From: Candidatus Methylomirabilia bacterium
GTDB taxonomy: Bacteria > Methylomirabilota > Methylomirabilia > Rokubacteriales > CSP1-6
Direction of reading: 5' to 3'
Length of the DNA stretch: 64,000 bases
Assembly: GCA_041490825.1 (NCBI GenBank)
Contig: JBGPTW010000004.1
Location: 31,902 to 95,901, forward strand
The notes below the pieces were generated by a model that was given only the letters and a program-made list of their open reading frames with translations, was not told where the DNA came from and made no database searches. A program made the position numbers and the translations under genes. Positions 26,264-60,023 of this stretch are shown here, in pieces. Numbering within the stretch: the first letter of the stretch is position 1; each line of letters begins with the position of its first letter.

Positions 26264-27365
26264 CCACGGGTTCCACGCGTCGGCCAGTCTTGAGCTTTGC
26301 CCGGCCCTGGTCGATCACCAGGTCTTGCGGGTTCAGGCCCGACACCACCTCCACCATGTCGTCGCCCTGGAGCCCTGTCTTGATGGTCTTCATGACGGCC
26401 CTACCGTCCTGCACGACGTACACGACCTCCTCGTTCCCGTGCTGGAGAATCACCGAGACCGGCAGCGCCAGGACACCGCGCTTCCGCGCGCTGACAAATT
26501 TAGCGCTTCCTGTCATACCGACCTTGAGGATCTCTTCGGCCGAGCTCACTCTCAGCTTCACCGAGTACCGCACACGCCCGGTGGGGTCCGGCGTGGACGC
26601 CACGGCGATCTCGCGCGTCGTGGCCTGGAGAACGCGCTGCGGCAGGGCGTCCATCTGCAGCGTCGCAGGTTGGCCGACGCGGACCTTCACGATGTCGGCT
26701 TGGTCGACGTCCGCATGAAACTCCGTCGATCCCAGTTCGGTCAGTTCGGCGACGGCTGTGGTTTGTGGCGTCTGGCCGGGAGCGCGCGCGTCGCTGTCGG
26801 GGACGATGCCTCCGACCTCGACGAATTTCTTCGTGACGATCCCGCTGATCGGCGCGACGATGGACGTCCGCGCCAGTCTCGCCTCGACCTGGGCGATGGC
26901 GGCCTTCCGATCCACGATCTGAGATCGATAGAGGTCCATCTGCCGCTCCGTGCTCTCGACCTCCTGCCGCGCCGCGAAGCCTTTCTCGTACAGGCGGCGC
27001 GTGCGCTGGAGATTGATCTCGGCGTTCGCCAGGTTGCTCTCCGCCAGCGTCAGATTCGCATGGATCTGGTCGACCTGCGCTCGAAGCTCGGACTGGTCGA
27101 GCTTGGCCAGGAGCTGGTCCTTCCGGACGTAGTCGTGCTCCCGGAAGTAGATTGCTGCGAACCGCGCTCCGGGCTCGGTCGTCACACGGACCGTCCGCAA
27201 GGCTTCCACGGCGCCGGTGGCCGTGAACGCTTCCTCGATCGTCGCCCGTGACGGTGTGATGACGGTGACCTTCTCGGGCTCCTCGCGGTAGAAGTACTGA
27301 TAGCCGCCCAAGCCGGCGGCAAGCAGGGCCACGACGATCAGCAAACTCTTGGTCAGACGTTTCAT
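26250..27365 (-). CDS. macA: Efflux transporter periplasmic adaptor (MacA/HlyD family).
   Basis: Signal-anchor, coiled-coil region, and a C-terminal beta-domain. Confidence 0.8.
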   Translation of the reverse strand: MKRLTKSLLIVVALLAAGLGGYQYFYREEPEKVTVITPSRATIEEAFTATGAVEALRTVRVTTEPGARFAAIYFREHDYVRKDQLLAKLDQSELRAQVDQIHANLTLAESNLANAEINLQRTRRLYEKGFAARQEVESTERQMDLYRSQIVDRKAAIAQVEARLARTSIVAPISGIVTKKFVEVGGIVPDSDARAPGQTPQTTAVAELTELGSTEFHADVDQADIVKVRVGQPATLQMDALPQRVLQATTREIAVASTPDPTGRVRYSVKLRVSSAEEILKVGMTGSAKFVSARKRGVLALPVSVILQHGNEEVVYVVQDGRAVMKTIKTGLQGDDMVEVVSGLNPQDLVIDQGRAKLKTGRRVEPVDAKR

Positions 27366-27375
27366 GAGGTGTACG

Positions 27376-28575
27376 TCACTCGTGTCGGAGCGCTTCGATC
27401 GGATCCAGCTTGGCTGCGCGATGCGCCGGGTACACCCCGAAGAACGTCCCCACGGCGATCGAGAAGATGAGTGCCAGACCAGAAGCGAGGGGCGACACGC
27501 TTACCACGAACATGGGATACGCCCTCGCGGCCACGAGCGCGCCCAGGTACGAGAGGCCCAGGCCGAAACAGCCCCCCATGAAGGACAGTAAAATCGCCTC
27601 GCTGAGAAACTGGGCGAGGATGTCAGGCTCGCGGGCTCCCAGAGCTTTCCGAAGGCCGATCTCTCGAGTCCGTTCCGTGACCGACACGATCATGATGTTC
27701 ATGATCCCGATCCCGCCGACCAGAAGCGACACGCCGGCGATACTCCCGAGCATGGCGGTGAAGATCACGCTGATGGACTGCACCGTCTCCAGCGTTTCTC
27801 CCTGGCTCTTCACGGAGAACTGGTCCGCGAGCAGCGTCTGCCCCAAGATGCGGCGCGCTTCGATCATGGCGCCGGGGATGTCGTCCGGCTTGGGCACGCC
27901 GACGAAGATGAACGACAGCGCGGTCGTCCCGAACATCCGCTGCGCTGTTGCGAGCGGGATGAAGACCTGGTTGTCCATGTCGATGTCGAAGAGCTGGCCC
28001 TTCGGCTCCATCACACCGACGACGCGGAATTTCTCTCCCGCGATCACGACCTCCCTGCCGACGACGTCGCCGCCGCTGAAGAGAGCCACTGCGACGGTCT
28101 TCCCGAGCGCCACGACCCGCCGGCCCAGGTCCGCGTCGCTCTTCTTGAGGAACGTCCCCTGGACCGGACGCCAGTTCCGCGCTTCCTGGAAGTTCGGCAG
28201 CGTCCCGCTCACCACCACGCCGGACTTCGCCTCGCGCCCATAGCCGACCGTGGACACGTTGTTCAGCACTGGCGAGACGACGACGTGGAAGGTCGTCGCT
28301 TTCTGAAGCCGTTCCGCGTGCGATACCTGAAGACGGCTGACCTGGGACGTCCCCATGATGACGCCGCCTTTTTGCCGACCGGGCGTGACCATGTAGAGGT
28401 TCGACCCGAGGCCCTCCACCAGCCGTGTCACCTCTCGGCTCGCACCCTCCGAGATCGAGATGAGGAGGATGATCGCGGTCGTCCCGATGGTCACGCCCAG
28501 GGTCGTCAGTGTAGAACGGAGCTTGTTGGCCGTGATGGCCTCGAGGGAAACCCGAAGGTACTCGAACAGCATCAT
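27376..28575 (-). CDS. macB: ABC transporter permease (MacB/FtsX family).
   Basis: MacB_PCD-like N-terminal domain plus an FtsX 4-TM C-terminus (ERTREIGLRKALGA). Confidence 0.85.
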   Translation of the reverse strand: MMLFEYLRVSLEAITANKLRSTLTTLGVTIGTTAIILLISISEGASREVTRLVEGLGSNLYMVTPGRQKGGVIMGTSQVSRLQVSHAERLQKATTFHVVVSPVLNNVSTVGYGREAKSGVVVSGTLPNFQEARNWRPVQGTFLKKSDADLGRRVVALGKTVAVALFSGGDVVGREVVIAGEKFRVVGVMEPKGQLFDIDMDNQVFIPLATAQRMFGTTALSFIFVGVPKPDDIPGAMIEARRILGQTLLADQFSVKSQGETLETVQSISVIFTAMLGSIAGVSLLVGGIGIMNIMIVSVTERTREIGLRKALGAREPDILAQFLSEAILLSFMGGCFGLGLSYLGALVAARAYPMFVVSVSPLASGLALIFSIAVGTFFGVYPAHRAAKLDPIEALRHE

Positions 28576-29318
28576 GGTTGCGCCTCGCCGACGTGCGCAG
28601 TTGCCGACCGGCGCTCGACGACCGCCTCGTCGCGAATCACCACGCCGTCCAGGAGGTGGACGATCCGCTCGGCGTGCTCGGCGAGCTCGCGGCTGTGCGT
28701 CACCATGATGATCGTCTTGCCCTCGCGGTTCAGGCGCTCGATCAACGCCATGACTTCGAGTCCCGAGCGGGAATCGAGGTTACCGGTGGGCTCGTCGGCA
28801 AGGAGGATCTCCGGATCGTTCGCCAGCGCCCGGGCAATGGCGACGCGCTGCTGCTGGCCGCCCGACAGCTGGTTCGGCCGGTGGCGCATCCTGTCCTGTA
28901 ATCCCACGTACCGCAGCAGCTCCGCCGCGCGCTCCCTCCGGCGGTTCCTGGGGAAGCGGCTATAGACGAACGGGAGCATCACGTTGGCCAGCGCCGTCGC
29001 GCGGGGGAGCAAATGGAATGTCTGAAAGACGAAGCCGATCTTGTGGGCGCGCAAAGCCGCCAGGTCAGTGGAGGTCATTCGCGAGGTGTCGATACCCCCG
29101 ATCTCGAGCGTGCCGCTGGAGGGCCGGTCAAGACAGCCGAGAAGGTTGAGCAGGGTCGACTTGCCGCACCCGGACGGGCCCATGAGCGCGATGAACATCC
29201 CGGGATCAACCGTGAGCGACATGCCACGGAGCGCCGGGACTTCGAGCCCGTCGAGCTGGTACGTCTTGACGAGATCCTTCGTCTTTACCATCGGCCCCTG
29301 CCCAGCACGAATCCCCAC
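28572..29318 (-). CDS. ABC transporter ATP-binding protein (MacB/LolD type).
   Basis: Walker A GPSGCGKST, signature LSGGQQQRVAIARAL, Walker B ILLADEPTGNLD. Confidence 0.9.
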   Translation of the reverse strand: MGIRAGQGPMVKTKDLVKTYQLDGLEVPALRGMSLTVDPGMFIALMGPSGCGKSTLLNLLGCLDRPSSGTLEIGGIDTSRMTSTDLAALRAHKIGFVFQTFHLLPRATALANVMLPFVYSRFPRNRRRERAAELLRYVGLQDRMRHRPNQLSGGQQQRVAIARALANDPEILLADEPTGNLDSRSGLEVMALIERLNREGKTIIMVTHSRELAEHAERIVHLLDGVVIRDEAVVERRSATAHVGEAQP

Positions 29319-30352
29319 TTCGTCTGCCCGAGCTCCGTGAGTCGGCCGCGGACCCTGTTGCTGCGGACGAGCCCGCCGTCGTACTCCTCGGGACGCACGT
29401 CTCGGTTGTCACCGAGGATGAAATAGTGGTCGCGTTCAACCGTCGTCGCTGGAACGGTCCAGTTCCCGCCGCCCACCCGGTACGGCTCGTCCAAGGCTCG
29501 TGTGTTCAGCAGCACGTCGCCGTGCCGCACCTGCACCAGGTCGCCAGGCACGCCGAGGATCCTCCCGACGAATCTCACGCGGGTCCGGACGATCGACGAC
29601 CAGAAGCCATCGTCCTGGCCTGCGCGGACGAAGGAGACGATGTCCCCGCGGCGGGGTGGCCGGACGAGATACGTGAGCCTGTCGAACGGCAGAGCCACCA
29701 CGTCCGGTCGTGCGACGAAGGGTGCCACCGTCGGCTCCATCGCCCGCAGGGCGCCGCCTGGCACGAGTCCTCGCTCGACCAGCGCGACGTGCTCACCCCA
29801 GGCGAGACCGCCGTACAGCAGCACGACCGCGAAGACCATCCTGGCCAGCGGCCACCCGGACCGCCCGCTCCACACTCTCACGGCGTGGAGCTTGAGGCGT
29901 AGCCCCCACAGCCAGAGCGTGAATAGAACGGCGATTTCCAGGAGGAGCCAATTGACGTCCAGATCCCGCCGCCAGTCCGTGGGGACGAGCAAGACGGCAG
30001 CAAAGGTCAAGAGCGCCCCGATGATGGCCGGGACCTCGGTATACCCCCAGAGCACGAACAGCTCGGACCACTCCGCGATGGGGTGACCGGTCAATCGCGC
30101 GCCGGAGTACACGAGACCGACGAGCAACGCTGTCCACCCGAGGGCGACGAAGCAGTTCCCGATCAGGCAGGCCGGGGTGCCAGCGAGAGGAGCGAACACG
30201 AGTTCGCTGATGAGAAGGGTCCTGACATAGTAGCCCGTCGCGCCAAGGAGCGCGGACACCGCCAGCGCGCGCCGCACCAGCATCGCCTCGAGGGTGTCTC
30301 GGGGCTCCATCATCAGTCCTCTGACGTCGACCCATGCTGCGATCACCGGCAA
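29285..30352 (-). CDS. Polytopic membrane domain fused to an S26 signal-peptidase-I-like domain whose Ser/Lys catalytic dyad is substituted (putative pseudopeptidase).
   Basis: Box C RRGDIVSF and box E YFILGDNRD are conserved. Box B reads RAMEPTV (Ala at the nucleophile Ser). Box D reads FVGRILGVPGD (Gly at the general-base Lys). Confidence 0.5.
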   Translation of the reverse strand: MPVIAAWVDVRGLMMEPRDTLEAMLVRRALAVSALLGATGYYVRTLLISELVFAPLAGTPACLIGNCFVALGWTALLVGLVYSGARLTGHPIAEWSELFVLWGYTEVPAIIGALLTFAAVLLVPTDWRRDLDVNWLLLEIAVLFTLWLWGLRLKLHAVRVWSGRSGWPLARMVFAVVLLYGGLAWGEHVALVERGLVPGGALRAMEPTVAPFVARPDVVALPFDRLTYLVRPPRRGDIVSFVRAGQDDGFWSSIVRTRVRFVGRILGVPGDLVQVRHGDVLLNTRALDEPYRVGGGNWTVPATTVERDHYFILGDNRDVRPEEYDGGLVRSNRVRGRLTELGQTKWGFVLGRGRW

Positions 30353-30362
30353 CCTCGTGCGA

Positions 30363-30743
30363 TCAGATGATCCCGAGGAAGAGCGCTACTGCCACGACCT
30401 CCTCCTTCAATTCGCCGAACGTGACCGCCTCGGCCAGCGCGAGGAGGACGAGGACTGCCGCGCCGAGCACCGGCAGTCCACTCGCCGGAAAATCCCACCG
30501 GGACCGTCGCGGGCGATGGATCGCGATAACCCGTTCCTTGACCCGAGAACGCGCGTCCAAGATCCTCTCCGGGGTCCTCGCCGGGATTGCCGCAGCATCG
30601 GCGATCACCGTCGCGAGTCGGAACAGCTCTTCCACTTCGGTCCGGCAGCGGCTGCAGACAGTGATGTGCTGCTCGACTCGTGCCCGGGTGCCAGCATCGA
30701 CGAGCCCATCCGTGTAGAGGGTCAGCGACGCCGGATCCATCGC
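30363..30743 (-). CDS. Anti-sigma factor (zf-HC2 type) with a C-terminal TM helix.
   Basis: HITVCSRC = Hx3Cx2C motif. TM segment GLPVLGAAVLVLLALA. Confidence 0.55.
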   Translation of the reverse strand, partial: AMDPASLTLYTDGLVDAGTRARVEQHITVCSRCRTEVEELFRLATVIADAAAIPARTPERILDARSRVKERVIAIHRPRRSRWDFPASGLPVLGAAVLVLLALAEAVTFGELKEEVVAVALFLGII

Positions 30744-30777
30744 GCACTCGAACCCCGGCCGCCGAAATCCGAAGAAC

Positions 30778-32406
30778 CTAGAGATCGACACGATACCTCT
30801 CCAGCAGGGTGCCCGTGGCCCGATCGAACTGGACGAGGATCTTGTTGTAGTCGATGATGACCTTCCACTCTTCCTGCTCGGCCGTGACCAGATCCCGCTG
30901 CGCCTCGATCACCTCGCTCAAGGACGCGAGCCCCTGCTGGAACTTCTCTCGTGTCACGTCCACCCGCAGCTTCGACTGCTCGCGGAACGCCCGAGAGACC
31001 GCGATCACGCTGAACGTCGACTGCATCTGGAGCCCCAGGCGCTCGACCTCGAGCGCGATCGCGTTCTCGACGTTCTTGACGGTGATCTCCGCCCTCTGCT
31101 TTTCCAGCTCAGCCGTCTCGAGCTGGCTCTTGGCGGCGACGTTTCCGAGAGTGAACGTCAGGTTCATACCGACCTTCCATGCGGGGAACTCACCCGAGAA
31201 AAGATTGTCCAGCGAGGTTCCGTAGCCGCCGACAGCGACGCTACTGGCTCCCGGGAAGCTGAGCGTGATCGGCCTGGTGACGGACACCGAGCTGGTGATG
31301 GGCACGGTGACCGTCGTGGTCAGTTGGCCAGGGGCCGCCTCGCCCGCGAGCCCGGTCCACCCGTAGCTTCCGAACAGATTCAGCTGCGGCAGGACCTGGT
31401 TCTTCGCGAAACCAACCGTGAGGTCTTTGTTCCTGAGATCGAGCCGGGCCTGAGGCAGCTCAGGGCGCTGTGCCAGCGCGTTCTTCACGGCCTCTGCGAT
31501 GTCCACGGTCTTCGGCTCGGCGAGGGGCTGATCGAGGGGCACGATCAGCGGATCGCCTCCTACCGCGAAGTTGAGCAGGTCTCGCAGCCGGCGCATCGCG
31601 TCCCGCTGCGTGTTACGGGCGACCAGAAGATCTCCTTCGCGCTGGAGGACCGAAGTCTTCGCCTGGAGCCGCGCGGTCTCCGGCATGAACCCTTCGGTCA
31701 CGAGCTCCTCGGTCCGCTTCGCCAGGTCCCGGGTGAGCTCGAGCGCACGCTCCCTGATCTCGATGTCTTTGAACGCCTTTGCGAGGTCCCAGTAGGTGCT
31801 CTCGGTTTCCGCCAAAATCCCGGCGACCCTGGTCCGGAGCTGGTAGCGTGAGATTCCCACGTTGTTCTCGGCAACCTTGATGCGCCACAAGTTCGCGTCT
31901 GGTCCGAAGCCCTTCAGCAGCGGCTGGGTCAGCGTCAGCGCCAGGCTGGACTGGTACTGCGGGTTGAGGGTCAGGAACTGAGAGTTGCTCTCCAGCTTGC
32001 TGTTCACGAAATCGAGCGACGCCACCGCACCACTGATGAGCCGCGCTCTGATTCCCGTGCTCCACGCGGTCGTGTCGACCTCGGGTGTCGGAGATCCTGC
32101 CAGACCCGATCCCGACAGGCTAATGCTCTGGCTGCGGCTGCCCTCCATCGAGACGGCCGGATGGAACGCTGCGCGCTCGCTCCGGACATCCTGCTCCACG
32201 ATTCTCGAATTGAACCGCTCGACCTTGAGGTCGCGGCTATTCATGAGGGCGAGGTAGGCGACATCATCCCGGGTGAGAGGCAGCGCCTCCCCGGCGTTCG
32301 TGAGTAGCGCCTGGGCGCCGGCCGAAGGCACCCCACTGGACATGAGGATGACCCAGGCTACTGAGGCAAGCCGGAGGCGGGACGTATGAAACGCGCGTGC
32401 CGTCAT
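30778..32406 (-). CDS. TolC-family outer membrane efflux protein.
   Basis: Signal peptide, duplicated OEP repeats, many Leu/Gln/Arg coiled-coil segments. Confidence 0.75.
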   Translation of the reverse strand: MTARAFHTSRLRLASVAWVILMSSGVPSAGAQALLTNAGEALPLTRDDVAYLALMNSRDLKVERFNSRIVEQDVRSERAAFHPAVSMEGSRSQSISLSGSGLAGSPTPEVDTTAWSTGIRARLISGAVASLDFVNSKLESNSQFLTLNPQYQSSLALTLTQPLLKGFGPDANLWRIKVAENNVGISRYQLRTRVAGILAETESTYWDLAKAFKDIEIRERALELTRDLAKRTEELVTEGFMPETARLQAKTSVLQREGDLLVARNTQRDAMRRLRDLLNFAVGGDPLIVPLDQPLAEPKTVDIAEAVKNALAQRPELPQARLDLRNKDLTVGFAKNQVLPQLNLFGSYGWTGLAGEAAPGQLTTTVTVPITSSVSVTRPITLSFPGASSVAVGGYGTSLDNLFSGEFPAWKVGMNLTFTLGNVAAKSQLETAELEKQRAEITVKNVENAIALEVERLGLQMQSTFSVIAVSRAFREQSKLRVDVTREKFQQGLASLSEVIEAQRDLVTAEQEEWKVIIDYNKILVQFDRATGTLLERYRVDL

Positions 32407-32768
32407 GAACGCTCCTCCAATCAAGTCAGTCCTCCGATCACGCCGATTAGACTTCGGACGGGCCGCTAAGGTTTGAATGTCCCTGATGCACCCGCCCCAG
32501 AATGCGGTGGGGCTCGAGGGGCGGTCCCGGCCCGGCCCGCGAGCGGCGCCGGTGTGCGAGGCGAGCGCCCGGCCAACTGAGCTAATTGCCGGTAGCAACG
32601 TTAACGGGTTGCGAGGGGCGCGTCAACCCTGCGGGCGGGCGAGCGGGCGAGCGGCACGAGCGACGCTATCGCCGGGACTGCGACGCCGCGGTCGGCTTCC
32701 GGGTGGGTCTGTTCACGTCTGCGGCGCCGAGACTTGCGCCCCGGCGCCGCAGATCCAAATGCTACGCC

Positions 32769-41190: not shown

Positions 41191-42825
41191 TTAGCGCGAC
41201 TCGGCCTCCACGTCAGGCGCCACGGCACGCGAGGACAGACCGAGGCAGAGCGCCGCCAGAATGCCGTAGGCGCCGGCCAGGCGCGCCGACACCAGTGACG
41301 GCAGCGTCCACGGCCAGAACAGCGCGCCGCTCTCGAGCGGCGAGTGCACGAGACCGAACAACGTCGCCGCGCTCGCAATGGCAAACACCACCGCGGCGGC
41401 CGCCAGGCGGCGGTCGACGATCGCGGCCAGCGCGGATCCCCACAACACCGCGGTGAGGACGAAGCCGTTGCCGAGCACCCGAAGCGCCCCGACGATCGCG
41501 GCCGCCTCGCCAGTCAGCGCGCCCGCCGACGTGCCGGCTGCGGTCAGCACACTACCTACCTCGAGCAGGACCATGGCCGCGGCGACGGGAACGAACGTGA
41601 TCGCGACGGCGGCGCCGTGGCGTTGCGGCGACGCGAGGAACGCCTGCGCCGTGATCTCGAGCCCGATGAAGACCAGGATCGGCGCAACGGCCGCCTCCGG
41701 CAAGATGCGGACGAGCGCCGGCAGCACACCTGCCATAGCGCCGAGGCCGATCACGAGACCGGTCGCGAGCGTGTAACCCGAGCGGGCTCCCATCGCCTTG
41801 TAGGCGGGATGCCCGATGTACGGCGTGTTCTGGATGACGCCGCCGCAGAGTCCGGCCAGGATCGTGGCCCCCGCCTCGGTCAGCAGCACGTCGCGCGTTC
41901 GGTAGTGGTCGCCCGCCGCGCTCGCGCTCTCGGTGTTGTCGATGCCGCCGACGACCGTGACGAGCGCGAACGGGAGCGCGATCGACAGGTAACCGAGCGC
42001 GTGCGGTATCGCGTCCATCCAGACGAGCGTCGGCCACGGAATGGCGAACTGGACATGGCCCGCACCGGCAGCCACGGCCTCGCCGCCCCCGACCAGCCAC
42101 GCACGGCCCCAGAACACCGCGGTCCCGGCCAGGACGGCGGCGAAGGCTCCTGGAATGCCGAGTGGCATGCGGACCCGTCCGAAGAGCGCGAGAAAGAGCA
42201 CGCCGAGCGCGACGAGCCCGGTCATCGGATCGGCGAAGAGCTTCAGCGACGGCAGGAAGGCAATCAGGAAGATCGCCACACCACCGATCGAGCCGAGTAA
42301 CGCGGCGCGGGGCACGACGCGACGAACCCAGTCCCCGGCGAAGGCGAGCGCGGTCTTCACGACGCCGATCGCGATGGTGACCGCCATGGCAACCTTCCAG
42401 GCCAGAATCGGATCCCCGGTGGCCAGCATGACGGGGCCGAGCACACCGAAGACCATTGCGAACAGCGTCGGCGTGTCGATCCCGAATGGCATCGCGGTGA
42501 CGTCCGACCGGCCAGTGGCTCGCATCAGCCGGAGCGCGAGCCAGGTGTAGACGAGATCCCCGGCCAGGACGCCGATGGCCGTCCCCGGCAGCATCCGAAA
42601 GAGGACGAGGTCCGGCGGGAACTTGAAGACGCCGATCAGCAAACCGGAGAGGATGACGAGCTGGGTGGTGTTGTCGAGGGCGAGCCCGAGAAACCCGTTC
42701 AGGTCCCCCTGACTGATCCAGGACGGCGCTCGACGGCCCGAGCCTATCGTGCGGTCGCGCTCGGAGCGGCCAGAAGGTGTTCGCGCGCCGACTCCCGCGT
42801 CCGCTGCGCGAGCGCCATGCACCAC
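41191..42825 (-). CDS. NCS2-family (xanthine/uracil/AzgA-like) nucleobase permease. The start is uncertain and probably internal to the ORF.
   Basis: About 13 TM helices with Gly-rich helix pairs. The first ~40 codons of the ORF are Arg/Gly-rich and probably untranslated. Confidence 0.55.
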   Translation of the reverse strand: MVHGARAADAGVGARTPSGRSERDRTIGSGRRAPSWISQGDLNGFLGLALDNTTQLVILSGLLIGVFKFPPDLVLFRMLPGTAIGVLAGDLVYTWLALRLMRATGRSDVTAMPFGIDTPTLFAMVFGVLGPVMLATGDPILAWKVAMAVTIAIGVVKTALAFAGDWVRRVVPRAALLGSIGGVAIFLIAFLPSLKLFADPMTGLVALGVLFLALFGRVRMPLGIPGAFAAVLAGTAVFWGRAWLVGGGEAVAAGAGHVQFAIPWPTLVWMDAIPHALGYLSIALPFALVTVVGGIDNTESASAAGDHYRTRDVLLTEAGATILAGLCGGVIQNTPYIGHPAYKAMGARSGYTLATGLVIGLGAMAGVLPALVRILPEAAVAPILVFIGLEITAQAFLASPQRHGAAVAITFVPVAAAMVLLEVGSVLTAAGTSAGALTGEAAAIVGALRVLGNGFVLTAVLWGSALAAIVDRRLAAAAVVFAIASAATLFGLVHSPLESGALFWPWTLPSLVSARLAGAYGILAALCLGLSSRAVAPDVEAESR

Positions 42826-45777: not shown

Positions 45778-47085
45778 ATGAGGACGGCTCTCGTCGCGCT
45801 GCTCCTGACCGTCGGTGCAGCAGTGCCCGCGGTGGCCCAGGCGCCCGCCGCGCCGCCATCGCCCACGGGGCACCCGCTGACGCTTCAGGAAGCCGTCGCC
45901 ATCGCGCTCGAGCGACAACCCAACATTCTCGCGGTGCTGAATGACTATGCGGCGGCCCGCTTTGTCGTCGATCAGGCGCTGGCGCCGCTCCTGCCGCAGT
46001 TCACCGGATCGATCAGCACGACGAGGAGCTCGCAAGCGGTCCTGCCGCAGTCATTGACCGCCACCGCACCCATCACGATTCAGCGCGACTTCAACCAGAC
46101 GCTCCTCGGGCAGGTCTCGGTCTCGCAGCTTCTCTTCGACTTCGGCCAGAACAAGGCGGCAACCGACGTCGCCCGGAAGAACGCGGCGGTGTCGCTGGAA
46201 AACGTGGAGCTCCAGCGCCAGCTCATCACATTCACCGTCAAGCAGGCCTTCACCCAGCTCAACTTCGCCAAACGGCTGTTCCAGGTGAACCAGCAGGCCC
46301 TGGAGCGGGCGGAGCTCAACCTGCGCTCGGCGCGTGGGTTCTTCGAAGTTGGCACCCAGCCGAAATCCGCGGTCACCCGCGCCGAAGTCGACGTCGCCAA
46401 CGCCGGGGTCGCCATCATCCAGGCGCGCAATGCGGAGCGCGTGGCGCGGGTCGCGTTGAACACCGCCATGGGCCTCACCGCTGACACGCCGACCGAGGTC
46501 ACCGACAACCTCGTCTACACGCCGGTGCAGTTCGATCCCGTGCAGCTCCAGGCCGACGCGCTTCGCCAGCGTCCCGAATACCTCCAGACGAAGCTACGCG
46601 CCGAAGCGGCCGAGGCGTTCGAGCGGCAAGCCTCCCGGAATTTCTTCCCGACGATCACGGGCTCGGCGACGTACGGCGGATTCCAGACCGATCTCCTGCC
46701 GGGCTGGAGCGCAAACCTCAACTTGACGTGGCCGTTCTTCGACGGCGGCGGGCGCCTCGCCGTCTACCGGCAGGCCAAGGCAAGTCTCGAAGCGGCGCGG
46801 GCGCGCGTGAGGGCGTCGGAGCTGGACATCTCACGTGACGTCGAACAATCGCGGCTCAACGTCACGGAAGCGAACGAGCGGATCCAGGCCAGCCTGAAAG
46901 CCGTCGAGTCAGCCCAGGAAAACTTCCGGCTCGCCCAGGGCCGGTTCGACGCCGGGGTGGGAACGATCCTGGAGCTCACCGATGCGCAGCTCGCCCTGAT
47001 CCAGTCGCAGAACACGGAAGCGCAGGCGCTCCAGGACTTCCAGATCGCGCTGGCTCAGCTCGACCGGGCCGTGGGCCGGCGGTAA
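45778..47085 (+). CDS. TolC-family outer membrane protein.
   Basis: Signal peptide MRTALVALLLTVGAAVPAVAQA. Two OEP repeats. Confidence 0.85.
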   Translation: MRTALVALLLTVGAAVPAVAQAPAAPPSPTGHPLTLQEAVAIALERQPNILAVLNDYAAARFVVDQALAPLLPQFTGSISTTRSSQAVLPQSLTATAPITIQRDFNQTLLGQVSVSQLLFDFGQNKAATDVARKNAAVSLENVELQRQLITFTVKQAFTQLNFAKRLFQVNQQALERAELNLRSARGFFEVGTQPKSAVTRAEVDVANAGVAIIQARNAERVARVALNTAMGLTADTPTEVTDNLVYTPVQFDPVQLQADALRQRPEYLQTKLRAEAAEAFERQASRNFFPTITGSATYGGFQTDLLPGWSANLNLTWPFFDGGGRLAVYRQAKASLEAARARVRASELDISRDVEQSRLNVTEANERIQASLKAVESAQENFRLAQGRFDAGVGTILELTDAQLALIQSQNTEAQALQDFQIALAQLDRAVGRR

Positions 47086-47169
47086 CCGAGGGGTCGCCGA
47101 CCCGCGGTGTCGGTACGTCGCGATAAATACTCCGGCAGTGACCGGCGTCAAAGGAGTATCCGAAGCACC

Positions 47170-48894
47170 ATGAAGCGCGCATTGTCAGTGATCGGAATCG
47201 TCCTCGCCGTCGCCGCCGGCGTCTGGGGCTATTTCTACACGCAAAGTCTCGGCAGCGCTCCGAAATACCGGCTGGCCCGGGTCGAGCGTGGCCCCCTCAC
47301 GGCAGCCGTCTCCGCGAGCGGCAACTTGAATGGCGTCATCATGGTCCTCGTCGGCAGTCAGGTGTCGGGTCAGGTCAAAGAGCTCTTCGTCGACTTCAAT
47401 TCCGTCGTGAAGAAAGGCCAGGTCATCGCGCGGATCGATCCGCAGATCTTCGAGGCCCAGGTCAACCAGGCAAAAGCCGACCTCGAAGCGGCGAAGGCGG
47501 CGGTGCAAAACCAGACCGCGACGGTGGAGAAGGCCAAGGCCGACGTCGAGAATGCGCGGGCGGCGCTGGCGCAGGCCAAGGCGCAGACCGCGAAGGCCGA
47601 CGTCATGATGGCCGATGCCAAGCGCACGTACGGCCGCAGCGCGGAGCTCTTCCGCCGGGACCTCATCGCGCAGGCCGACCGCGATACTGCCCAGGCGAAC
47701 TACGATGCTTCGGTCGCGCAGCTCGACGCCGCGCGCGCCAACGAGCAATCGCTGGCGGCCGCCATCCAGTCCGCGCAGGCGCAGCTCCGCGTGCAGGAGG
47801 CTCAGCTCAAGTCGGCGCAGGCCCAGGTCCACCAGAAGGAAGCGGCGCTCAAGCAGTCCCAGATCAATCTCGATTACACGACGATCCTCGCTCCCGTCGA
47901 CGGCATCGTGGTCTCCCGCGCGGTCGACGTGGGTCAAACCGTGGCGGCCAACCTCCAGGCGCCCACGCTCTTCACCATCGCGAAGGACCTCACACGGATG
48001 CAGGTCGAGACCAGCGTGGACGAGGCCGACATCGGTCGCATCAAGGTCGACGGACCTGCCACGTTCACGGTCGACGCCTTCCCGGGCGAAGTCTTCACCG
48101 GCCGGGTCACGCAGATCCGGAAAGCGGCACAGATCATCCAGAACGTCGTCACGTACACCGTGATCGTCGAGGTGCCGAATCCCACCGGCAAGCTCCTTCC
48201 CGGAATGACGGCCAACGTCAAGGTGGTCGTCGCCGAAAAACCGAACGTGGTGAAGGTCTCCAATGCCGCGCTGCGATTCCGTCCCGCGGGAGTCGACGCG
48301 GGACCGACGCCGGGGTCTTCGGGACGTGGCGGCCAACCAGGCCCGGCGAGTAGTGGCGGTCGGGCCGGTGGCGGCGCAGGTAGCGCCGGTGGCGGTGCCC
48401 CAAGCGCCGGTAGTGGCTTTGGAGCCGGAGGAGGCGGCCGCCAATCGCCCGAGGCGATGCGTGAGCGACTCGTGAAGGGTCTCGGCTTGAGCGACGAGCA
48501 ACAGAAGAAACTGGAGCCAATCCTTCAAGATAGTCGCGAACAGGTGATGGCACTTCGAGGCGAGCAGCTTGCCGACCAGGAACGCCAGGCGCGCATCCAG
48601 AAGGTCCGCGAGGGAACGCGCGCGCGCATCCGGGCGATCCTGACGCCGGCGCAGCAGGCGCGCTACGACGACGTGTCTGCATCCGAAGGGCGCGGCGGCA
48701 CCACCGGCCGAGTCTGGGTCGCCGGCCGCGACGGCAAACCCGAAGCCGTCTCGGTCACATTGGGACTGACGGATGGCACGGCCACCGAGGTGTTGCAAGG
48801 CCTGAAGGAAGGTCAGGAGGTCATCGTCGGCACCGCGAACAAGGCCACTGGACCCGGCGGCTCCCAGGGCGGCGCTCCCCGGCTGAGACTCTGA
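47170..48894 (+). CDS. macA: MacA-type periplasmic adaptor with a Gly-rich / LTxxQ-containing insertion (~150 aa) before the C-terminal membrane-proximal strand.
   Basis: Adaptor coiled-coil and lipoyl/beta-barrel domains. Then GGQPGPASSGGRAGGGAGSAGGGAPSAGSGFGAGGGG...ILTPAQQARY, then the MP domain (EVLQGLKEGQEVIVG). Confidence 0.75.
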   Translation: MKRALSVIGIVLAVAAGVWGYFYTQSLGSAPKYRLARVERGPLTAAVSASGNLNGVIMVLVGSQVSGQVKELFVDFNSVVKKGQVIARIDPQIFEAQVNQAKADLEAAKAAVQNQTATVEKAKADVENARAALAQAKAQTAKADVMMADAKRTYGRSAELFRRDLIAQADRDTAQANYDASVAQLDAARANEQSLAAAIQSAQAQLRVQEAQLKSAQAQVHQKEAALKQSQINLDYTTILAPVDGIVVSRAVDVGQTVAANLQAPTLFTIAKDLTRMQVETSVDEADIGRIKVDGPATFTVDAFPGEVFTGRVTQIRKAAQIIQNVVTYTVIVEVPNPTGKLLPGMTANVKVVVAEKPNVVKVSNAALRFRPAGVDAGPTPGSSGRGGQPGPASSGGRAGGGAGSAGGGAPSAGSGFGAGGGGRQSPEAMRERLVKGLGLSDEQQKKLEPILQDSREQVMALRGEQLADQERQARIQKVREGTRARIRAILTPAQQARYDDVSASEGRGGTTGRVWVAGRDGKPEAVSVTLGLTDGTATEVLQGLKEGQEVIVGTANKATGPGGSQGGAPRLRL

Positions 48895-49661
48895 TGCCGC
48901 TCATCGCAGTCGAGGCCCTCACCAAGGACTACATCCTCGGTCCCCACGCGGTTCATGCCCTTCGCGGTATCTCGATGCAGATCGACGAAGGTGAGTTCGT
49001 CGCGGTCATGGGACCGTCGGGCTCTGGGAAGTCGACGTTCATGAATGTGCTCGGGTGCCTCGACACGCCGACAACCGGCCGCTATCTACTCGATGGCGAG
49101 GACGTGGCGGGCCTGTCGCGCGATGCGCTGGCCCGCATCCGCAATCAGAAGATCGGCTTCGTCTTCCAGCAGTTCAATCTCCTGCCCCGCGTCAGCGCCC
49201 TCGAGAACGCCGAGCTCCCGCTGCTCTACTCCGGGCTTCCAACCCGCGATCGGCGCGCGCGCGCGCGCGAACGACTGGCCGCGGTCGGCCTCTCCGATCG
49301 CGCCACCCATAATCCGAGCCAGCTCTCCGGCGGACAGCAGCAGCGAGTCGCCATCGCGCGCGCCCTCGTCAACGACCCCGCGGTCGTCCTTGCCGACGAG
49401 CCCACCGGCAACCTCGACACGCGCACGAGCATCGAGATCCTTGCGCTCCTGCAGCGCCTGAACCGCGAAGGGTTGACGATCATCGTCGTGACCCATGAGC
49501 CTGACATCGCGGCCCACGCCGGACGCATTCTCACGTTCCGCGACGGCCATGTGCTCGGCGACGAGCGCGTGCCCGCGCCCGCCGATGCCGCCGCCGAGCT
49601 GGCCGGAATGAGAATCGAGGACGAGGAAGAGGAAGAGGAAGAGGAAGAGGTCGTCGCGTGA
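48894..49661 (+). CDS. ABC transporter ATP-binding protein (MacB type) with a C-terminal poly-Glu tail.
   Basis: GPSGSGKST, LSGGQQQRVAIARAL, VLADEPTGNLD. Ends EDEEEEEEEEEVVA. Confidence 0.9.
   Translation: MPLIAVEALTKDYILGPHAVHALRGISMQIDEGEFVAVMGPSGSGKSTFMNVLGCLDTPTTGRYLLDGEDVAGLSRDALARIRNQKIGFVFQQFNLLPRVSALENAELPLLYSGLPTRDRRARARERLAAVGLSDRATHNPSQLSGGQQQRVAIARALVNDPAVVLADEPTGNLDTRTSIEILALLQRLNREGLTIIVVTHEPDIAAHAGRILTFRDGHVLGDERVPAPADAAAELAGMRIEDEEEEEEEEEVVA
49612..49650 (+). repeat. (GAGGAA)n hexanucleotide simple-sequence repeat encoding the poly-Glu tail.
   Basis: gaggacgaggaagaggaagaggaagaggaagaggtc. Confidence 0.8.
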
Positions 49662-50890
49662 CGCTGTGGCATAGCGCCAGGATCGCGGTCGGAGCGCTCC
49701 GGGTGAACAAGCTCCGGAGCGCCCTCACGATGCTGGGCATCATCATCGGCGTCGGCGCGGTCATCGCCATGGTCGCCGTCGGCGCGGGCGCGCAGGCGCG
49801 CGTCGCGGAACAAATTCAGAGCCTCGGCTCGAACCTCATGATCATCCTGTCGGGCAGCGTCACCTCAAGTGGTATTCGGCTTGGCCAAGGGAGCCAGCTC
49901 ACCATCACCGAGGACGATGCGAGCGCGATCCAGCGCGAGGTGCCGACCGTGCAGGTCGCGGCGCCCTCGAACCGCGGTACCGCGCAGGTCGTCTACGGCA
50001 ACCTGAACTGGGCCACCGTGCTCCAGGGCATCACGCCCGAGTACCTGGAAGCGCGCGACTGGCTGGTGGAGACGGGACGCGGCATCGCGCAGGACGAAGT
50101 CGATGGCGCGGTCAAGGTCGCGCTCATCGGTCAGACGACGTCGCTCAACCTCTTCGGCGATGGCGACCCGCTCGGTCAGATCATCCGTATCAAGAAGGTG
50201 CCGTTCACGATCGTCGGGACGTTGTCGCGAAAGGGCCAGAACTCCTATGGCCAGGACCAGGACGACCTCATCCTGATCCCGCTGTCGACGGCGAAGAAGA
50301 AGGTCCTCGGCGTGGCGCAGTCGAACCCTCGGTCGGTGAGCGTGATCACGGTCAAGGTGCGCGCCGGTGAAGACATGAGCGATGCCGAAAACCAGATCCG
50401 CGGGCTCCTGCGCCAGCGCCACAAGCTCCAGCCCTACCAGGACGACGACTTCTGGGTCCGCAACCTGTCGGAGATACTGCAGACCCAGGAAGAATCGTCA
50501 CGCGTGATGACCTATCTGCTGGCCGCGATCGCCTCGATCTCGCTCCTCGTCGGCGGCATCGGGATCATGAACATCATGCTGGTGTCGGTGACGGAGCGCA
50601 CGCGCGAGATCGGACTCCGGATGGCCGTCGGCGCGCGCGGGCGCGACATCCTCGCGCAGTTCCTCGTCGAAGCCATCACGCTGTCGGCCATCGGCGGCGT
50701 CATCGGCATCGCGCTCGGCCTCGGAGGCTCCGAGGCGCTCAGCTATTACTTCCAGTGGCGGACCCTGGTCGCTCCGGAGGCGATCCTGATCGCCTTCGGC
50801 TTCGCTGCGACCATCGGGGTCTTCTTCGGGTTTTACCCGGCGAGAAAGGCCGCGCGCCTCGATCCGATCGAAGCGCTTCGCTACGAGTAG
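49658..50890 (+). CDS. macB: ABC transporter permease (MacB/FtsX).
   Basis: Start MTLWHSARIAVGALRVNKLRSALTMLGIIIG overlaps the ATPase stop (GTGA). FtsX C-terminus. Confidence 0.85.
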   Translation: MTLWHSARIAVGALRVNKLRSALTMLGIIIGVGAVIAMVAVGAGAQARVAEQIQSLGSNLMIILSGSVTSSGIRLGQGSQLTITEDDASAIQREVPTVQVAAPSNRGTAQVVYGNLNWATVLQGITPEYLEARDWLVETGRGIAQDEVDGAVKVALIGQTTSLNLFGDGDPLGQIIRIKKVPFTIVGTLSRKGQNSYGQDQDDLILIPLSTAKKKVLGVAQSNPRSVSVITVKVRAGEDMSDAENQIRGLLRQRHKLQPYQDDDFWVRNLSEILQTQEESSRVMTYLLAAIASISLLVGGIGIMNIMLVSVTERTREIGLRMAVGARGRDILAQFLVEAITLSAIGGVIGIALGLGGSEALSYYFQWRTLVAPEAILIAFGFAATIGVFFGFYPARKAARLDPIEALRYE

Positions 50891-56803: not shown

Positions 56804-57733
56804 GTGCCCTCGCTCGGTCAAACCCGCGCCTACGTGGCGCTGGTGCTCATCGTCGTCCTCTGGGCCAGCTATCCCGCCATGGCGAAGCTCGCGCTTCGTG
56901 ATTTCCCTCCGTTCTTCCTCGCCGTCACCCGCTGTGTGATCGCGTCGACATTCCTGGTCGCCGTGCTCGCTCGCGCGCCGACGCGACCACTGCAGAGCCT
57001 GTCTCCATCCGCGCTTCCCGCGTTCTTCGTGCTCGGCCTCGCCGGCATCTGGATCTCGATGCAGTTCACCTATGTGGCGATCTATTACACGACGGCGGGC
57101 AATGCCGTAATTCTCCAGGCGGCGACCCCGGTGACGGTGGCGCTCGGTGCACGGCTGTATCTGGGTGAGCGGCTTCAGCGGGCGCAGTGGTTTGGCGTCG
57201 GTGTCTCGGCCTTCGGCGTGCTGCTGGTGATCACGAAGGGACATCTGGCGCTCCTCCGCCCGGAAGAGGTACATGTCGGCGATCTGATCACGCTCGTCTC
57301 GTTGATAGGCTGGACCGCGTACACCGTATACGGGACGCGACTCCTCGCCGTCCACTCGCCGGAGCTCGCCACGACCGCCGCCTACGTGCTGGGCACGCTG
57401 CTGCTGATCCCGACGGCGGCGCTGACCGCGCCGCTCTACCCTGCCCCACGGCTCGGCTCGCTCGTCGCGTGGACCGTCGTGCTCTATCAGGCCATCTTCG
57501 GCGCCGTCGCGCACCTGTGGTGGTATCGAGCGGTCCGCGTCATCGGGCCGAGCCGTTCCGCGATGTTCATGAACTTGCAGCCGGTGGTCGGCCTGCTGCT
57601 CGCGCACGCGGTGCTCGGGGAGGTGATCGGCTTCTGGCAGGTTGCCGGCGCCGCGTTCGTGCTCGGCGGCGTGGCCCTGACGACGCGCGCGCGGGGCCGA
57701 GCGGCCAGCCCCGCGCGCGACTCCGTCAGCTGA
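56804..57733 (+). CDS. DMT-superfamily (EamA) transporter.
   Basis: 10 TM helices, two EamA repeats. Confidence 0.8.
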   Translation: MPSLGQTRAYVALVLIVVLWASYPAMAKLALRDFPPFFLAVTRCVIASTFLVAVLARAPTRPLQSLSPSALPAFFVLGLAGIWISMQFTYVAIYYTTAGNAVILQAATPVTVALGARLYLGERLQRAQWFGVGVSAFGVLLVITKGHLALLRPEEVHVGDLITLVSLIGWTAYTVYGTRLLAVHSPELATTAAYVLGTLLLIPTAALTAPLYPAPRLGSLVAWTVVLYQAIFGAVAHLWWYRAVRVIGPSRSAMFMNLQPVVGLLLAHAVLGEVIGFWQVAGAAFVLGGVALTTRARGRAASPARDSVS

Positions 57734-58202
57734 GCTTCTTGACCTCGGCGAGGATCTTGTCGGGGTCCGGCAATTCACCCTTGCCGTACCGCTCGACGAA
57801 GGCGACCTTGCCGTTCTTGTCGATGATGAACGTGGCGCGGCTGTTGGCGTTCCAGTCCTGCCAGTACACGCCGTAATCCCGGGCCACGCTCCGGTGCACG
57901 TCGGACAGCAGGGGATAGTTGCTGATGCCGACCGACTTCGCCCAGTTCTCGTGACTGAACGGACTGTCCGTGCTGATACCCAGCACCTGGGTATTGGCCG
58001 CCTCGAAATCGCGCACGCGCTTATCGAAGGCGGGCATGCACTTGCTTCAGCCCGGTGTCCAGTCCAGCGGGTAGAACAGCACGACGACGTTCTTCCCGCG
58101 ATAATCCCGCAGGCCGACCTCTTTGAGCCCGATCGACTTCAGCGTGAAGTCGGGAGCCGGATCGCCCGCGTTGAGGGTCTTTCCGTCCGCGACAGTGCTC
58201 AC
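57726..58202 (-). CDS. bcp: Bcp/PrxQ-type peroxiredoxin with an in-frame TGA (58047-58049) at the peroxidatic Cys position. Candidate selenocysteine-containing Prx, or alternatively a TGC->TGA nonsense pseudogene.
   Basis: GTG start at 58202 (SD GGGGA; overlaps the MBL stop as GTGA). The translation reads ...GKNVVVLFYPLDWTPG-[TGA]-SKCMPAFDKRVRDFEAANTQVLGISTDSPFSHENWAK..., which lines up with the E. coli Bcp consensus (YFYPKxxTPGCTxxAC...VxGISxDxP), with TGA in the Cp position. Confidence 0.6.
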
Positions 58203-59125
58203 TCGAAGTGTCCCCCTTTCGCTGATTTGGGAGGTGTGCGCGTCATGATAGCACGCGATGTTCCGGCCCTCGCGGGTGGCTTGCGGGTGGCGCCCGACAG
58301 CGATGGCCGGCGGCTCTCCAGCGGCGCCTCGGGGAGCCCGAGAAAGCCGGCGGCAGTGGTCACACGCCCCGTGTCCCAGAGCCGGGCGAAGCGTTCCGCC
58401 GCCCGCACGTCACGAAGCGCGTGGTGATCCATGACGACGCGGCACCCGGTGCTGTCGATGATCTTCATGAGGTTGTCGATGCCGCGATCGATCAGGGCGG
58501 TGCCGACCTCGTGCTCGATGTACGACGGCGGCCCGGACAGATAGAGGAGCGTCGGACGCTCCTGGATGAGATACGCCGTCGCCACGGCCGAGAGCGGGCC
58601 CTGCACGTCGGAGGCGAACACGAACCGCTCGCGCTCCAGCGTGTCCGCGATCGTCAGCGCCACCACGTACCCCAGTGCCGTGCCTTCGACGCCATGCGCG
58701 AGCGGCGCCGAGACTCGTAGCTCGAGCGGCGGCTCGCGATGGCTCATGCCGTCGGCGCTGTCCAGTCGTGCCTGCCCGGACAGCGTCCTGCGCAGCGCCG
58801 CGGCCCGCTTCGCCTGGAGCCCGTTCACCATACGCTGCGGATCCTTCGCGAGCACTCGCCGGCCGGCGTAGGTCGCCGGGTCGGAACGAAAATGGTCCTC
58901 GTGGTAGTGGCTGACGAAGATGAACTGCGCGCGCTCGGCGTAGGCCGAGATGCGATCATTGGCGCGGCGAAACGCTTCCCACTCCTGATCGCTCGGTGGC
59001 AAGCCGAACCGGGACGGCGCGAGCGTCGCGCCGGGATCGATCAAGATCCCGGTTCCGGCGACCTCCACGTACGTGGCCATGGAGCGCACGCCGAGCGAAT
59101 CGGCGGCGAGCGGAACGATGTTCAT
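58199..59125 (-). CDS. MBL-fold metallo-hydrolase.
   Basis: VSHYHEDH (HxHxDH) zinc-binding motif. Confidence 0.7.
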   Translation of the reverse strand: MNIVPLAADSLGVRSMATYVEVAGTGILIDPGATLAPSRFGLPPSDQEWEAFRRANDRISAYAERAQFIFVSHYHEDHFRSDPATYAGRRVLAKDPQRMVNGLQAKRAAALRRTLSGQARLDSADGMSHREPPLELRVSAPLAHGVEGTALGYVVALTIADTLERERFVFASDVQGPLSAVATAYLIQERPTLLYLSGPPSYIEHEVGTALIDRGIDNLMKIIDSTGCRVVMDHHALRDVRAAERFARLWDTGRVTTAAGFLGLPEAPLESRRPSLSGATRKPPARAGTSRAIMTRTPPKSAKGGHFE

Positions 59126-59261: not shown

Positions 59262-60023
59262 TCAGATGCATCGGCCGCCGTCGACTTCGATGCACGTGCC
59301 GGTGATCATCGCCGCGTCGTCGGACGCGAGGAAGACGGCGGCCCGCGCGAGATCTTCGGGCTGGTTCAGGCGCCCCAGCGGAATCGTCGCGATGTAGCGG
59401 GCGCGGCTCTCCGCATCCACTTCCTTCCGGTTCATGAACGTGGGAAGCATCGGCGTCTCGGTCGCCACCGGCGCGATGGCGACGACCCGGACGCCGTACG
59501 GCGCCGCTTCGAGGGCCAGCGCTTTCGTCAACGTCACCACGGCGCCCTTGGACGCGGCGTACGTCTGGCCGCCAGGCCGTGGCCGGATGGCCGACGTCGA
59601 TGCCGTGACGAGAAAAACGCCGCGCTTCTGGCGCTTCATGACCGGCAGCGCGTGCTTGGCGCCAAGCCAGACGCCTTTCACGTTGACGGCCATGATCCGG
59701 TCGAACACCGCCTCGTCGACCTCCTCGATGTCCGTCTTCCACTGCGGCACGCCGGCGTTCGCGAAGAAGACGTCCAGCCGTCCCCACAGCGCCAGTGCGC
59801 GTTCCACGGCAGCCTGATTGTCTGCGCCGCGAGTGACGTCGGCGTGCACCGCCACCGCCTGGCCGCCCCCGTGCTCGATCCGCTCGACGATGGCCTTCGC
59901 GTTCGCGTCATTCACATCCGCGACGACCACGCGAGCGCCTTCTGCTGCCATCGCCAGCGCGGACGCCGCTCCGATGCCCGATCCCGCGCCCGTGATCAGC
60001 GCGACCCGATCTCTCAGCCTCAT
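59262..60023 (-). CDS. SDR-family oxidoreductase.
   Basis: ALITGAGSGIGAASA, NAGV, and YAASKGAV (YxxxK). Confidence 0.85.
   Translation of the reverse strand: MRLRDRVALITGAGSGIGAASALAMAAEGARVVVADVNDANAKAIVERIEHGGGQAVAVHADVTRGADNQAAVERALALWGRLDVFFANAGVPQWKTDIEEVDEAVFDRIMAVNVKGVWLGAKHALPVMKRQKRGVFLVTASTSAIRPRPGGQTYAASKGAVVTLTKALALEAAPYGVRVVAIAPVATETPMLPTFMNRKEVDAESRARYIATIPLGRLNQPEDLARAAVFLASDDAAMITGTCIEVDGGRCI

Follow-up and report, generated by a model that had tools for sequence, protein, structure and literature searches.

Selenocysteine (Sec, U)-containing peroxiredoxins (Prx) with a TxxU motif and Prx-like proteins with a UxxC motif are long-established selenoprotein families (PMC2398784, PMC13188914). 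The 'Prx, pfam00578, TxxU' family of Zhang and Gladyshev (PMC2398784; PMC13188914), which includes PrxU of Eubacterium acidaminophilum, has the AhpC/TSA fold and a PxxxTxxU motif with Sec in place of the peroxidatic cysteine (Cp), occurs in pairs of Sec and cysteine (Cys) forms, and carries its recoding structure within the coding region; the 'Prx-like 1' thiol:disulfide oxidoreductase selenoproteins (Kryukov and Gladyshev 2004), as catalogued in PMC13188914 and PMC2398784, combine the Pfam domain PF00578 with UxxC. Here we describe a gene with the same traits on the minus strand of a 64,000-nucleotide stretch of contig JBGPTW010000004.1 (the window, positions 31,902 to 95,901 of the contig) from a Candidatus Methylomirabilia bacterium of the Rokubacteriales. 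Although a TGA codon makes this peroxiredoxin gene look broken, comparative analysis indicates that it is almost certainly an intact selenoprotein gene in which UGA encodes a catalytic-site Sec. The best explanation of our data, to which we assign a probability of about 0.88, is an intact cytoplasmic peroxiredoxin of 158 residues with Sec as its peroxidatic residue (UGA, 58049..58047) and with a recoding signal made of two hairpins. A Sec peroxiredoxin is an already known kind of enzyme; the layout of its Sec insertion sequence (SECIS) is possibly new.

The minus-strand region from 58202 to 57726 forms one frame of 158 codons, the UGA counted in, with this TGA as the single internal stop (VSTVADGK...FYPLDWTPG*SKCMPAFDKR...KKLS*) and a second TGA (57728..57726) at its end. 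The GTG that opens the frame shares bases, as GTGA, with the TGA stop (58201..58199) of an upstream open reading frame (ORF) of 308 codons, and a Shine-Dalgarno-like GGGGGA run (58216..58211) ends 8 nt 5' of it. The product from this start has 158 amino acids (aa), near the 155-158 aa of Cys orthologues. When all 64 kb of the window were scanned for TGA codons with a coding-like composition to either side, the peroxiredoxin TGA was the sole match; in about 90 related loci the same scan picked up nothing but two false positives, each due to neighbouring genes that share a frame. A first-pass annotation, made from the letters of the window alone, had described a frame uninterrupted save for one TGA, a start coupled to the upstream gene, a TGA exactly at the catalytic Cp position and a UxxC motif, and on all of these points our translation and alignments agree with it; the Cys of UxxC lies three residues after the UGA.

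With Cys put at the stop, the protein matches Pfam AhpC-TSA (PF00578) with E=1.6e-41 (141.6 bits against a cut-off of 26). A phmmer search of all PDB chains sets the stop (FYPLDWTPG*) opposite the peroxidatic Cys in human Prx2 (FYPLDFTFVC), with P45, T49, U52 and R121 matching the Prx2 active-site residues. An AF2 model of a Cys orthologue, built on a shallow alignment with a moderate mean pLDDT of 69 and used solely to look for similar folds and to locate Cp, has Cp at the beginning of a helix (residues 49-58); its nearest folds in Foldseek are Bcp4 and AhpE, with E values of about 3e-15 to 1e-14, TM scores of 0.80-0.82 and 33-35% identity. By sequence (phmmer), the PDB neighbours are Prx1/2 at 89 bits, AhpE at 82 (residues 9-146) and an archaeal Bcp at 79. 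The closest solved structures of similar length, Mycobacterium tuberculosis AhpE (a 1-Cys Prx, PDB 1xvw/4x1u) and Sulfolobus solfataricus Bcp4 (PDB 3hjp), are Cys enzymes, whereas the window protein would be a Sec form. Since Prx1/2, AhpE and Bcp4 are about equally distant, no subfamily is singled out, and the NCBIfam scores all stayed below their cut-offs: 83 of 123 bits for the Tpx equivalog, 76 of 140 for Bcp (NF006960), 75.4 of 270 for PrxU (NF040737) and 59 of 260 for PrxQ (NF053650). Two-Cys members of the Bcp group typically have CxxxxC (Cp-x4-Cr) spacing, while the window protein has U-x2-C and lacks the Bcp-type CxxxxC. These comparisons point to a short AhpC/TSA peroxiredoxin, for which the Bcp/PrxQ label of the first-pass annotation is over-specific.

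The TxxU motif, as T-P-G-U, is present in the window protein and in every Sec homologue. Judged by definition only (PF00578 with Sec in TxxU), the gene would belong to the Prx (TxxU) selenoprotein family. Compared with that family, by description only, the window clade has an additional Cys at +3, and its best-conserved hairpin lies at 60 nt and not at 16-37 nt; with its 158 aa the window protein is short, it is intermediate between the AhpE, Bcp and Prx1 types, and it is not an equivalog of PrxU (NF040737). The +3 Cys codon is TGC in 63 of 63 aligned Sec forms but is restricted to the Rokubacteria clade of the window, with U-T-K-E, U-T-A-Q and similar sequences in divergent Sec clades. In contrast to Prx-like 1 (reference WP_010940744.1, again by description only), the U of the window protein would also be peroxidatic, in a complete PxxxTxxU plus Arg site. 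Because the peroxidase site is complete and the UxxC Cys is clade-specific, being absent in sister Sec clades, assignment as a peroxidase fits better than Prx-like 1.

A scan that covered one genome per species gave 80 loci, nearly all labelled Rokubacteria/Methylomirabilota, and the peroxidatic codon is TGA in 78 of these, TGC in one (L004) and TGT in one (L078). In the Sec forms the entropies at codon positions 1/2/3 are 0.35/0.27/0.90 over the 40 codons 5' of the TGA and 0.34/0.26/0.82 from codon +25 on; the match between the two sides means that both halves evolve as one translated frame. Additional Cys orthologues, taken from the protein database, share the gene order of the Sec forms, namely a short-chain dehydrogenase (SDR), a PRK04286-like gene, Prx, a convergent EamA gene, SRPBCC and AurF. 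In a neighbour-joining tree, Cys forms are nested at no fewer than four separate places within the TGA clade, a pattern that fits repeated Sec-to-Cys reversion. The selenoprotein reading of the first-pass annotation is supported by this conservation of TGA, by the syntenic Cys orthologues and by coding-type conservation on both sides, as well as by the covarying RNA described below; its proposed check of TGC against TGA in relatives found TGC/TGT forms that are rare and nested inside the TGA clade, and the combination of TGC relatives with decay of this copy was not seen.

The alternative named there was a recent TGC to TGA nonsense mutation in what would now be a decaying pseudogene, to which a sequencing or assembly error may be added. 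TGA is indeed one base from TGC, and public gene calls (L089, L090) treat the gene as broken, dividing it into ORFs of 51 and 103 aa. The same TGA is nonetheless found in 78 of the 80 independent genomes at species level and, in separately assembled data, in distant clades; there are no further stops or frameshifts, and both halves are under purifying selection; the TGA homologues moreover differ at many synonymous sites, and so are not copies of a single contaminant. We consider the probability of such an accident to be close to negligible. A genome-wide reassignment of UGA was rejected, as TGA is the commonest stop in the window and ends 33 of its 55 genes, the peroxiredoxin gene included.

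The two short ORFs could also be real products, either as two associating polypeptides or as a shortened protein made from the 103-residue C-terminal ORF only (ATG 58037). The ATG four codons after the UGA is conserved, and protein collections hold hundreds of 'peroxiredoxin' entries of 101-107 aa. That Met, however, belongs to a conserved CMPAFD/EMPS motif which is equally present in full-length Cys forms; the ATG is not preceded by a ribosome-binding site, none of the active site (Pro, Thr, Cp) is contained in the 103-aa piece, and purifying selection is as strong on the 51 codons before the UGA as on the remainder. We therefore regard a truly split protein as highly improbable, and the hundreds of short entries as the same split artefact as in the public gene calls.

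Two kinds of unusual relatives were seen alongside these forms. Of two further protein relatives (P0021 and P0024), one has Arg at Cp (TPGRSTC, consistent with TGA to CGA) and the other a deletion of the active-site helix; both are probably non-functional. Eight contigs (L012, L020, L028, L045, L063, L069, L075 and L078) carry the gene at 77-82% identity in bins labelled Binatia, Verrucomicrobiia, Nitrosotalea (an archaeon), Actinomycetota or Dormibacterota. These are most likely mis-binned Rokubacteria contigs; synteny was confirmed for L078 only, which is the same contig as L084.

The family extends beyond this clade. In a protein search at the level of representative sequences, all close relatives were 'truncated' at the Met after the TGA, and the nearest full-length Cys families had at most 48% identity. 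A second protein search, with one distant truncated form as query, brought in about 100 more 'truncated' relatives of 101-107 aa. The TGA is also found in more distant relatives, at about 50-80% identity and in other genomic contexts. All eight divergent loci that were fetched (L092-L099) have an in-frame TGA at Cp, after TPG, SPG or TPV, and they fall into five sequence groups plus two ungrouped singletons (L092, L095), in unrelated contexts of 57-73% GC. When metagenomes were scanned with a profile built from these forms, 80 loci were obtained, of which one ends at a contig edge, with TGA in 78 of the 79 that could be read and TGC in one. One metagenomic Sec form (L169:989-1084) has an extra in-frame TAG eight codons after the UGA (PSY*EQ), which may reflect a decayed copy or a sequencing error. 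At L097:9340-10905, in the neighbourhood of a divergent relative, a GTP cyclohydrolase I gene with an apparent intein, called from weak, faint Pfam matches to Intein_splicing and LAGLIDADG_3, adjoins an F420 biosynthesis cluster.

In the published model of the bacterial SECIS, a loop of 3-9 nt with G in its first two positions closes an upper stem of at least 4 bp, lies 16-37 nt from the UGA and has a minimum free energy (MFE) of -7.5 kcal/mol or lower, and some elements depart from this model (PMC13188914). The fdhF element of Escherichia coli, the reference bacterial SECIS, and the window gene have in common a hairpin inside the reading frame and a structured element that starts 11-13 nt after the UGA. 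Two hairpins, H1 and H2 (Table 1), follow the UGA of the window gene. The apical hairpin of fdhF (GCA-GGUC-UGC) resembles H2 (CCCAG-GUG-CUGGG) in a loop that opens with G-G-U or G-U and in a CAG/CUG-like stem. In fdhF there is one hairpin with its loop 18 nt from the UGA, whereas in the window gene the matching loop is at 60 nt with a separate hairpin of 36 nt in between.

The base of H1 begins 13 nt 3' of the UGA, and H2 starts 3 nt 3' of H1, which places the H2 loop 59-60 nt after the UGA. Folding the 78 nt after the UGA as a single sequence gave no significant result (z = -1.29), and comparative tests were used instead. The first 96 nt 3' of the TGA align without gaps across clades, in one alignment of close (A1) and one of divergent (A4) sequences, and for resampling controls each peptide was kept while codons were drawn from the clade's own usage. 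As the register of H1 moves by 1-2 nt between clades, H1 was assessed by folding of each sequence and by same-peptide codon resampling rather than with a covariance model. Two other candidates, a lower stem GUGC/GCAC (columns 9-12 with 77-80, part of a three-way junction in the window fold) and a hairpin enclosing the UGA (CGGGC/GCCCG), were rejected because their columns vary without compensation in A1.

The outer stem of H1 is part of the MFE fold in 78 of 78 close and 67 of 76 divergent sequences. Pair 18-51 of this stem is CG in 64 sequences, UA in 4, GC in 3 and UG in 3, the three GC cases lying in different parts of the tree, and in the divergent set the arms covary as CCCUUCG/CGAAGGG, CCCGUC/GACGGG, CCCACG/CGUGGG and AUCCCA/UGGGAU. 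H1 is also more stable than codon resamples of the same peptide (z = -1.8 and -2.8). Its tip, in contrast to the conserved outer stem, is not conserved: loops include GUGA, AUCC, AUCG, ACCC, CCGA and AAAG, and several variants have no loop. With scripts that only approximate bSECISearch, the H1 tip agreed with the published bacterial SECIS criteria in 3 of 78 close sequences under strict settings; when bulges were tolerated, the counts were 24 of 78 for the close and 20 of 76 for the divergent set. In the window itself the tip, whose GUGC loop is 30 nt away from the UGA, is in loose agreement with the model. The first-pass annotation had offered H1 as its SECIS, a GC-rich hairpin with G/U in the apical loop. 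The hairpin it drew (CUUCGA...UCGAGG around GCGCGUGCGCG) is present in the sequence and in the MFE fold, and its outer stem is conserved, but the GC-rich tip and the G/U loop are particular to the window and a few relatives; the range it suggested for folding (58046-57980) covers H1 and cuts off the better-conserved H2, which it had missed.

H2 is the main consensus helix found by RNAalifold in A1 and the sole one in A4. Its pair 58-72 is GC in 45 sequences, AU in 30 and GU in 2, without a mismatch in the 77 sequences, and pairs 57-73 and 63-67 are likewise doubly changed, so that compensatory changes are found at three pairs altogether. Third-position entropy within H2 is 0.22 compared with 0.82-0.90 elsewhere, a drop in synonymous variation of about 4-fold, and the codons fixed there include ones seldom used in the rest of the gene (AAT in 61 of 61, GGT in 60 of 63). 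Against same-peptide codon resamples the stability of H2 gives z = -3.4 and -2.4, while the next 21 nt give -0.2 and +0.4. A search of 828 kb for the H2 motif returned 162 occurrences, 161 of them located exactly 55 nt 3' of a Prx Cp codon and the remaining one at a contig end.

The presence of H2 follows that of the UGA. Its loop, stem, G and energy agree with the model in 152 of 154 Sec sequences compared with 2 of 6 Cys lineages (Fisher p = 8e-6, in a test that ignores kinship among the sequences). Among the six independent Cys lineages, H2 is intact in one, the most recent (L004), has a widened loop in another, keeps its stem with GUG changed to CUA in a third, and is lost in three; in one of these three (L166) the AQVLGI peptide is retained with codons that are unable to pair into H2. 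The outer stem of H1 persists in Cys forms without H2. These comparisons show H2 to be tied to the UGA, and more tightly so than H1. Three Sec forms without H2 (L092:1863, L093:5989 and L096:9989) instead carry a proximal hairpin of canonical type, in all three with the same GGA triloop at 20 nt from the UGA. Every Sec form that we examined has either the GGA proximal hairpin or H2, and one family thus contains two SECIS layouts.

Based on this, we suggest that, of the two hairpins, H2 is the better candidate for the part of the SECIS to which SelB binds, and that H1 may act as a compact spacer whose ends are spatially adjacent, bringing H2 to just outside the mRNA entrance. In its general form the proposal is of a large, multi-phylum subfamily of Sec peroxiredoxins with a bipartite SECIS outside the current bacterial model, in which a spacer hairpin of conserved structure but free sequence, directly after the UGA, is followed at exactly 60 nt by a near-invariant SelB-binding hairpin of 8 bp with a GUN loop, while sister clades use the proximal GGA hairpin at 20 nt; we put this forward tentatively, with odds that we judge to be about even. 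The other arrangement that would leave the gene a selenoprotein is that H1 is the SelB-binding SECIS in the canonical place and H2 an accessory that slows the ribosome, stacks on H1 or shields the mRNA. The base of H1, 13 nt after the UGA, is in the place of the minimal E. coli SECIS hairpin, its tip at 25-30 nt is inside the 16-37 nt range, the window tip has the loop GUGC, the outer stem covaries and outperforms codon resamples, and the Sec forms that lack H2 use a hairpin at the position of H1. What makes us think this arrangement rather unlikely is that the tip sequence is not conserved and agrees with the model in a minority of sequences (3-24 of 78 in the close set, 20 of 76 in the divergent one), and that the outer stem outlasts H2 in Cys forms, hence its looser tie to the UGA.

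Several observations weigh against an intact selenoprotein gene with a two-hairpin signal as we read it. In E. coli the spacing between UGA and hairpin is critical. The H2 loop, at 59-60 nt from the UGA, is beyond the 16-37 nt of the model (PMC13188914), even though H2 agrees with it in the other respects in 152 of 154 sequences; by position alone it is H1 that occupies the place of the SelB-binding hairpin, with a tip in the window that loosely fits. The neighbour-joining tree rests on 429 nt and is without support values, and the low diversity of the Rokubacteria clade (91% mean column identity) keeps the covariation counts small. The metagenome loci were retrieved by a peptide pattern, [TA]QV[LV]GIS[VT]D, which enriches for the peptide underlying H2; the pattern leaves the covarying synonymous sites of H2 free. 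Finally, neither selA, selB, selD nor tRNA-Sec was found in the 64-kb window, which was searched with ARAGORN, Rfam and Pfam on about 55-56 ORFs; Rfam at gathering thresholds and ARAGORN returned nothing in the window at all.

The literature on this gene or on Sec use in Rokubacteria yielded phylum-level statements only. According to PMC13188914 and PMC13582414, 63 selenoprotein genes are predicted in a metagenome-assembled genome of Methylomirabilota, and the phylum includes hydrogenases of the Sec-type [NiFeSe] kind. A further reading of the same conservation is that the UGA is recoded, with the help of the SECIS, to Cys or another residue, either through SelB by a tRNA of the tRNA-ReC/SelC* type or by near-cognate read-through. 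Such tRNAs have been reported in several phyla, acting with a downstream SECIS (PMC13582414). For Cys, though, a plain TGC or TGT would suffice; hundreds of lineages have long maintained UGA together with about 60 nt of constrained RNA and have changed to TGC/TGT only sporadically, which speaks for a product other than Cys, and Sec-containing Prx is an established family (PMC2398784). We believe that recoding to a residue other than Sec is quite improbable.

If Sec is inserted, as we infer, the following sequence of events may be envisaged. Translation would start at the GTG coupled to the upstream gene, and at the UGA a complex of SelB, GTP and Sec-tRNA(Sec), tethered to the structured mRNA 3' of the codon, would outcompete release factor 2 and insert Sec; the second UGA at the end of the frame, which has no such structure, would terminate translation. 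With the UGA in the A site, H1, with its conserved stem and variable tip, would be located at the mRNA entry site, and SelB would bind H2, whose loop opens with an invariant G-U, similar to the tip that SelB binds in fdhF. Folded H1, as a compact spacer, would keep H2 near the ribosome despite the 60 nt along the chain. In the finished protein, we speculate, the selenolate in the PxxxTxxU/Arg site attacks the peroxide to give a selenenic acid, which the +3 Cys would resolve to a selenenylsulfide that is then reduced by a thioredoxin-type reductant.

Table 1. Positions in the window of the peroxiredoxin gene, its proposed recoding elements and its conserved upstream partners.
Feature	Position	Strand	Description or basis
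Peroxiredoxin gene (AhpC/TSA family), complete, predicted selenoprotein	57726..58202	minus	frame, Pfam match, alignment to solved Prx, TGA conservation
GTG start codon, overlapping the upstream stop as GTGA	58200..58202	minus	earliest start in frame
In-frame UGA at the peroxidatic (Cp) site of PxxxTxxU, proposed Sec codon	58047..58049	minus	alignment and conservation
Cys codon at +3 (UxxC), candidate resolving cysteine	58038..58040	minus	clade-specific
Hairpin H1	57998..58033	minus	outer stem CCGCCU/AGGCGG plus CGA/UCG around variable tip
Hairpin H2	57976..57994	minus	AUACCCAG-GUG-CUGGGUAU, 8-bp stem, GUN loop (57986..57984)
PRK04286-like gene, 308 aa, translationally coupled, conserved operon partner	58199..59125	minus	weak metallo-beta-lactamase-fold signal
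Short-chain dehydrogenase, at the head of the conserved SDR / PRK04286-like / Prx set	59262..60023	minus	ORF

For the upstream partner, which the first-pass annotation had called a metallo-beta-lactamase gene, a signal of that fold is present, though only below threshold (Pfam Lactamase_B families, E 0.004-0.02); in NCBIfam the product is PRK04286-like (NF003290, E=7e-58, below the cut-off). The orthologue of the short-chain dehydrogenase in L081-L085 carries adh_short.

Elsewhere in the window, a lipid/polyketide-like cluster (1466-21784) comprises a UbiA prenyltransferase, two sulfotransferases, an acyltransferase, the ketoacyl synthase KAS III, an acyl carrier protein, two ketosynthases, a MaoC dehydratase, a ketoreductase and two Zn-dependent dehydrogenases. 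Transposase/integrase fragments at 965-1456 and 22492-22947, both on the minus strand (DDE_Tnp_ISAZ013, profile positions 86-226 of 308, and rve_3), are likely remnants of insertion sequences. Two paralogous MacB-type efflux sets (26250-32598, minus; 45778-50890, plus) each consist of an outer-membrane factor, a HlyD-like adaptor, an ABC ATPase and an FtsX permease. The set on the minus strand adjoins an ECF sigma factor gene (25664-26263) and contains the gene of a zf-HC2 putative zinc-finger protein (30363-30791). Three coding-like ORFs on the minus strand, of 821 (23031-25496), 544 (41191-42825) and 483 aa (9499-10950), had no Pfam match at E<=1e-5.

The gene and hundreds of its relatives are stored in public collections as pieces of 51 and 103 aa, or as a 103-aa 'peroxiredoxin' without an active site. 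As its most interesting by-product, the analysis brought out a conserved recoding signal of two hairpins, the better conserved of which lies well beyond the accepted distance. Within one protein family, a natural experiment combines a canonical proximal SECIS, a tandem hairpin at 60 nt, and Cys revertants that progressively lose H2, and through these three states the spacing rule of bacterial Sec insertion becomes testable. If the bipartite SECIS is true, SelB would act over a longer stretch of mRNA than 16-37 nt, provided that the intervening RNA is folded, and search tools that use the 16-37 nt rule would mis-place or miss such elements. Rokubacteria are abundant in soil and groundwater, and a conserved Sec-peroxidase in nearly all of them would add to the evidence for heavy use of selenium in this phylum and would bear on how these bacteria handle peroxide.

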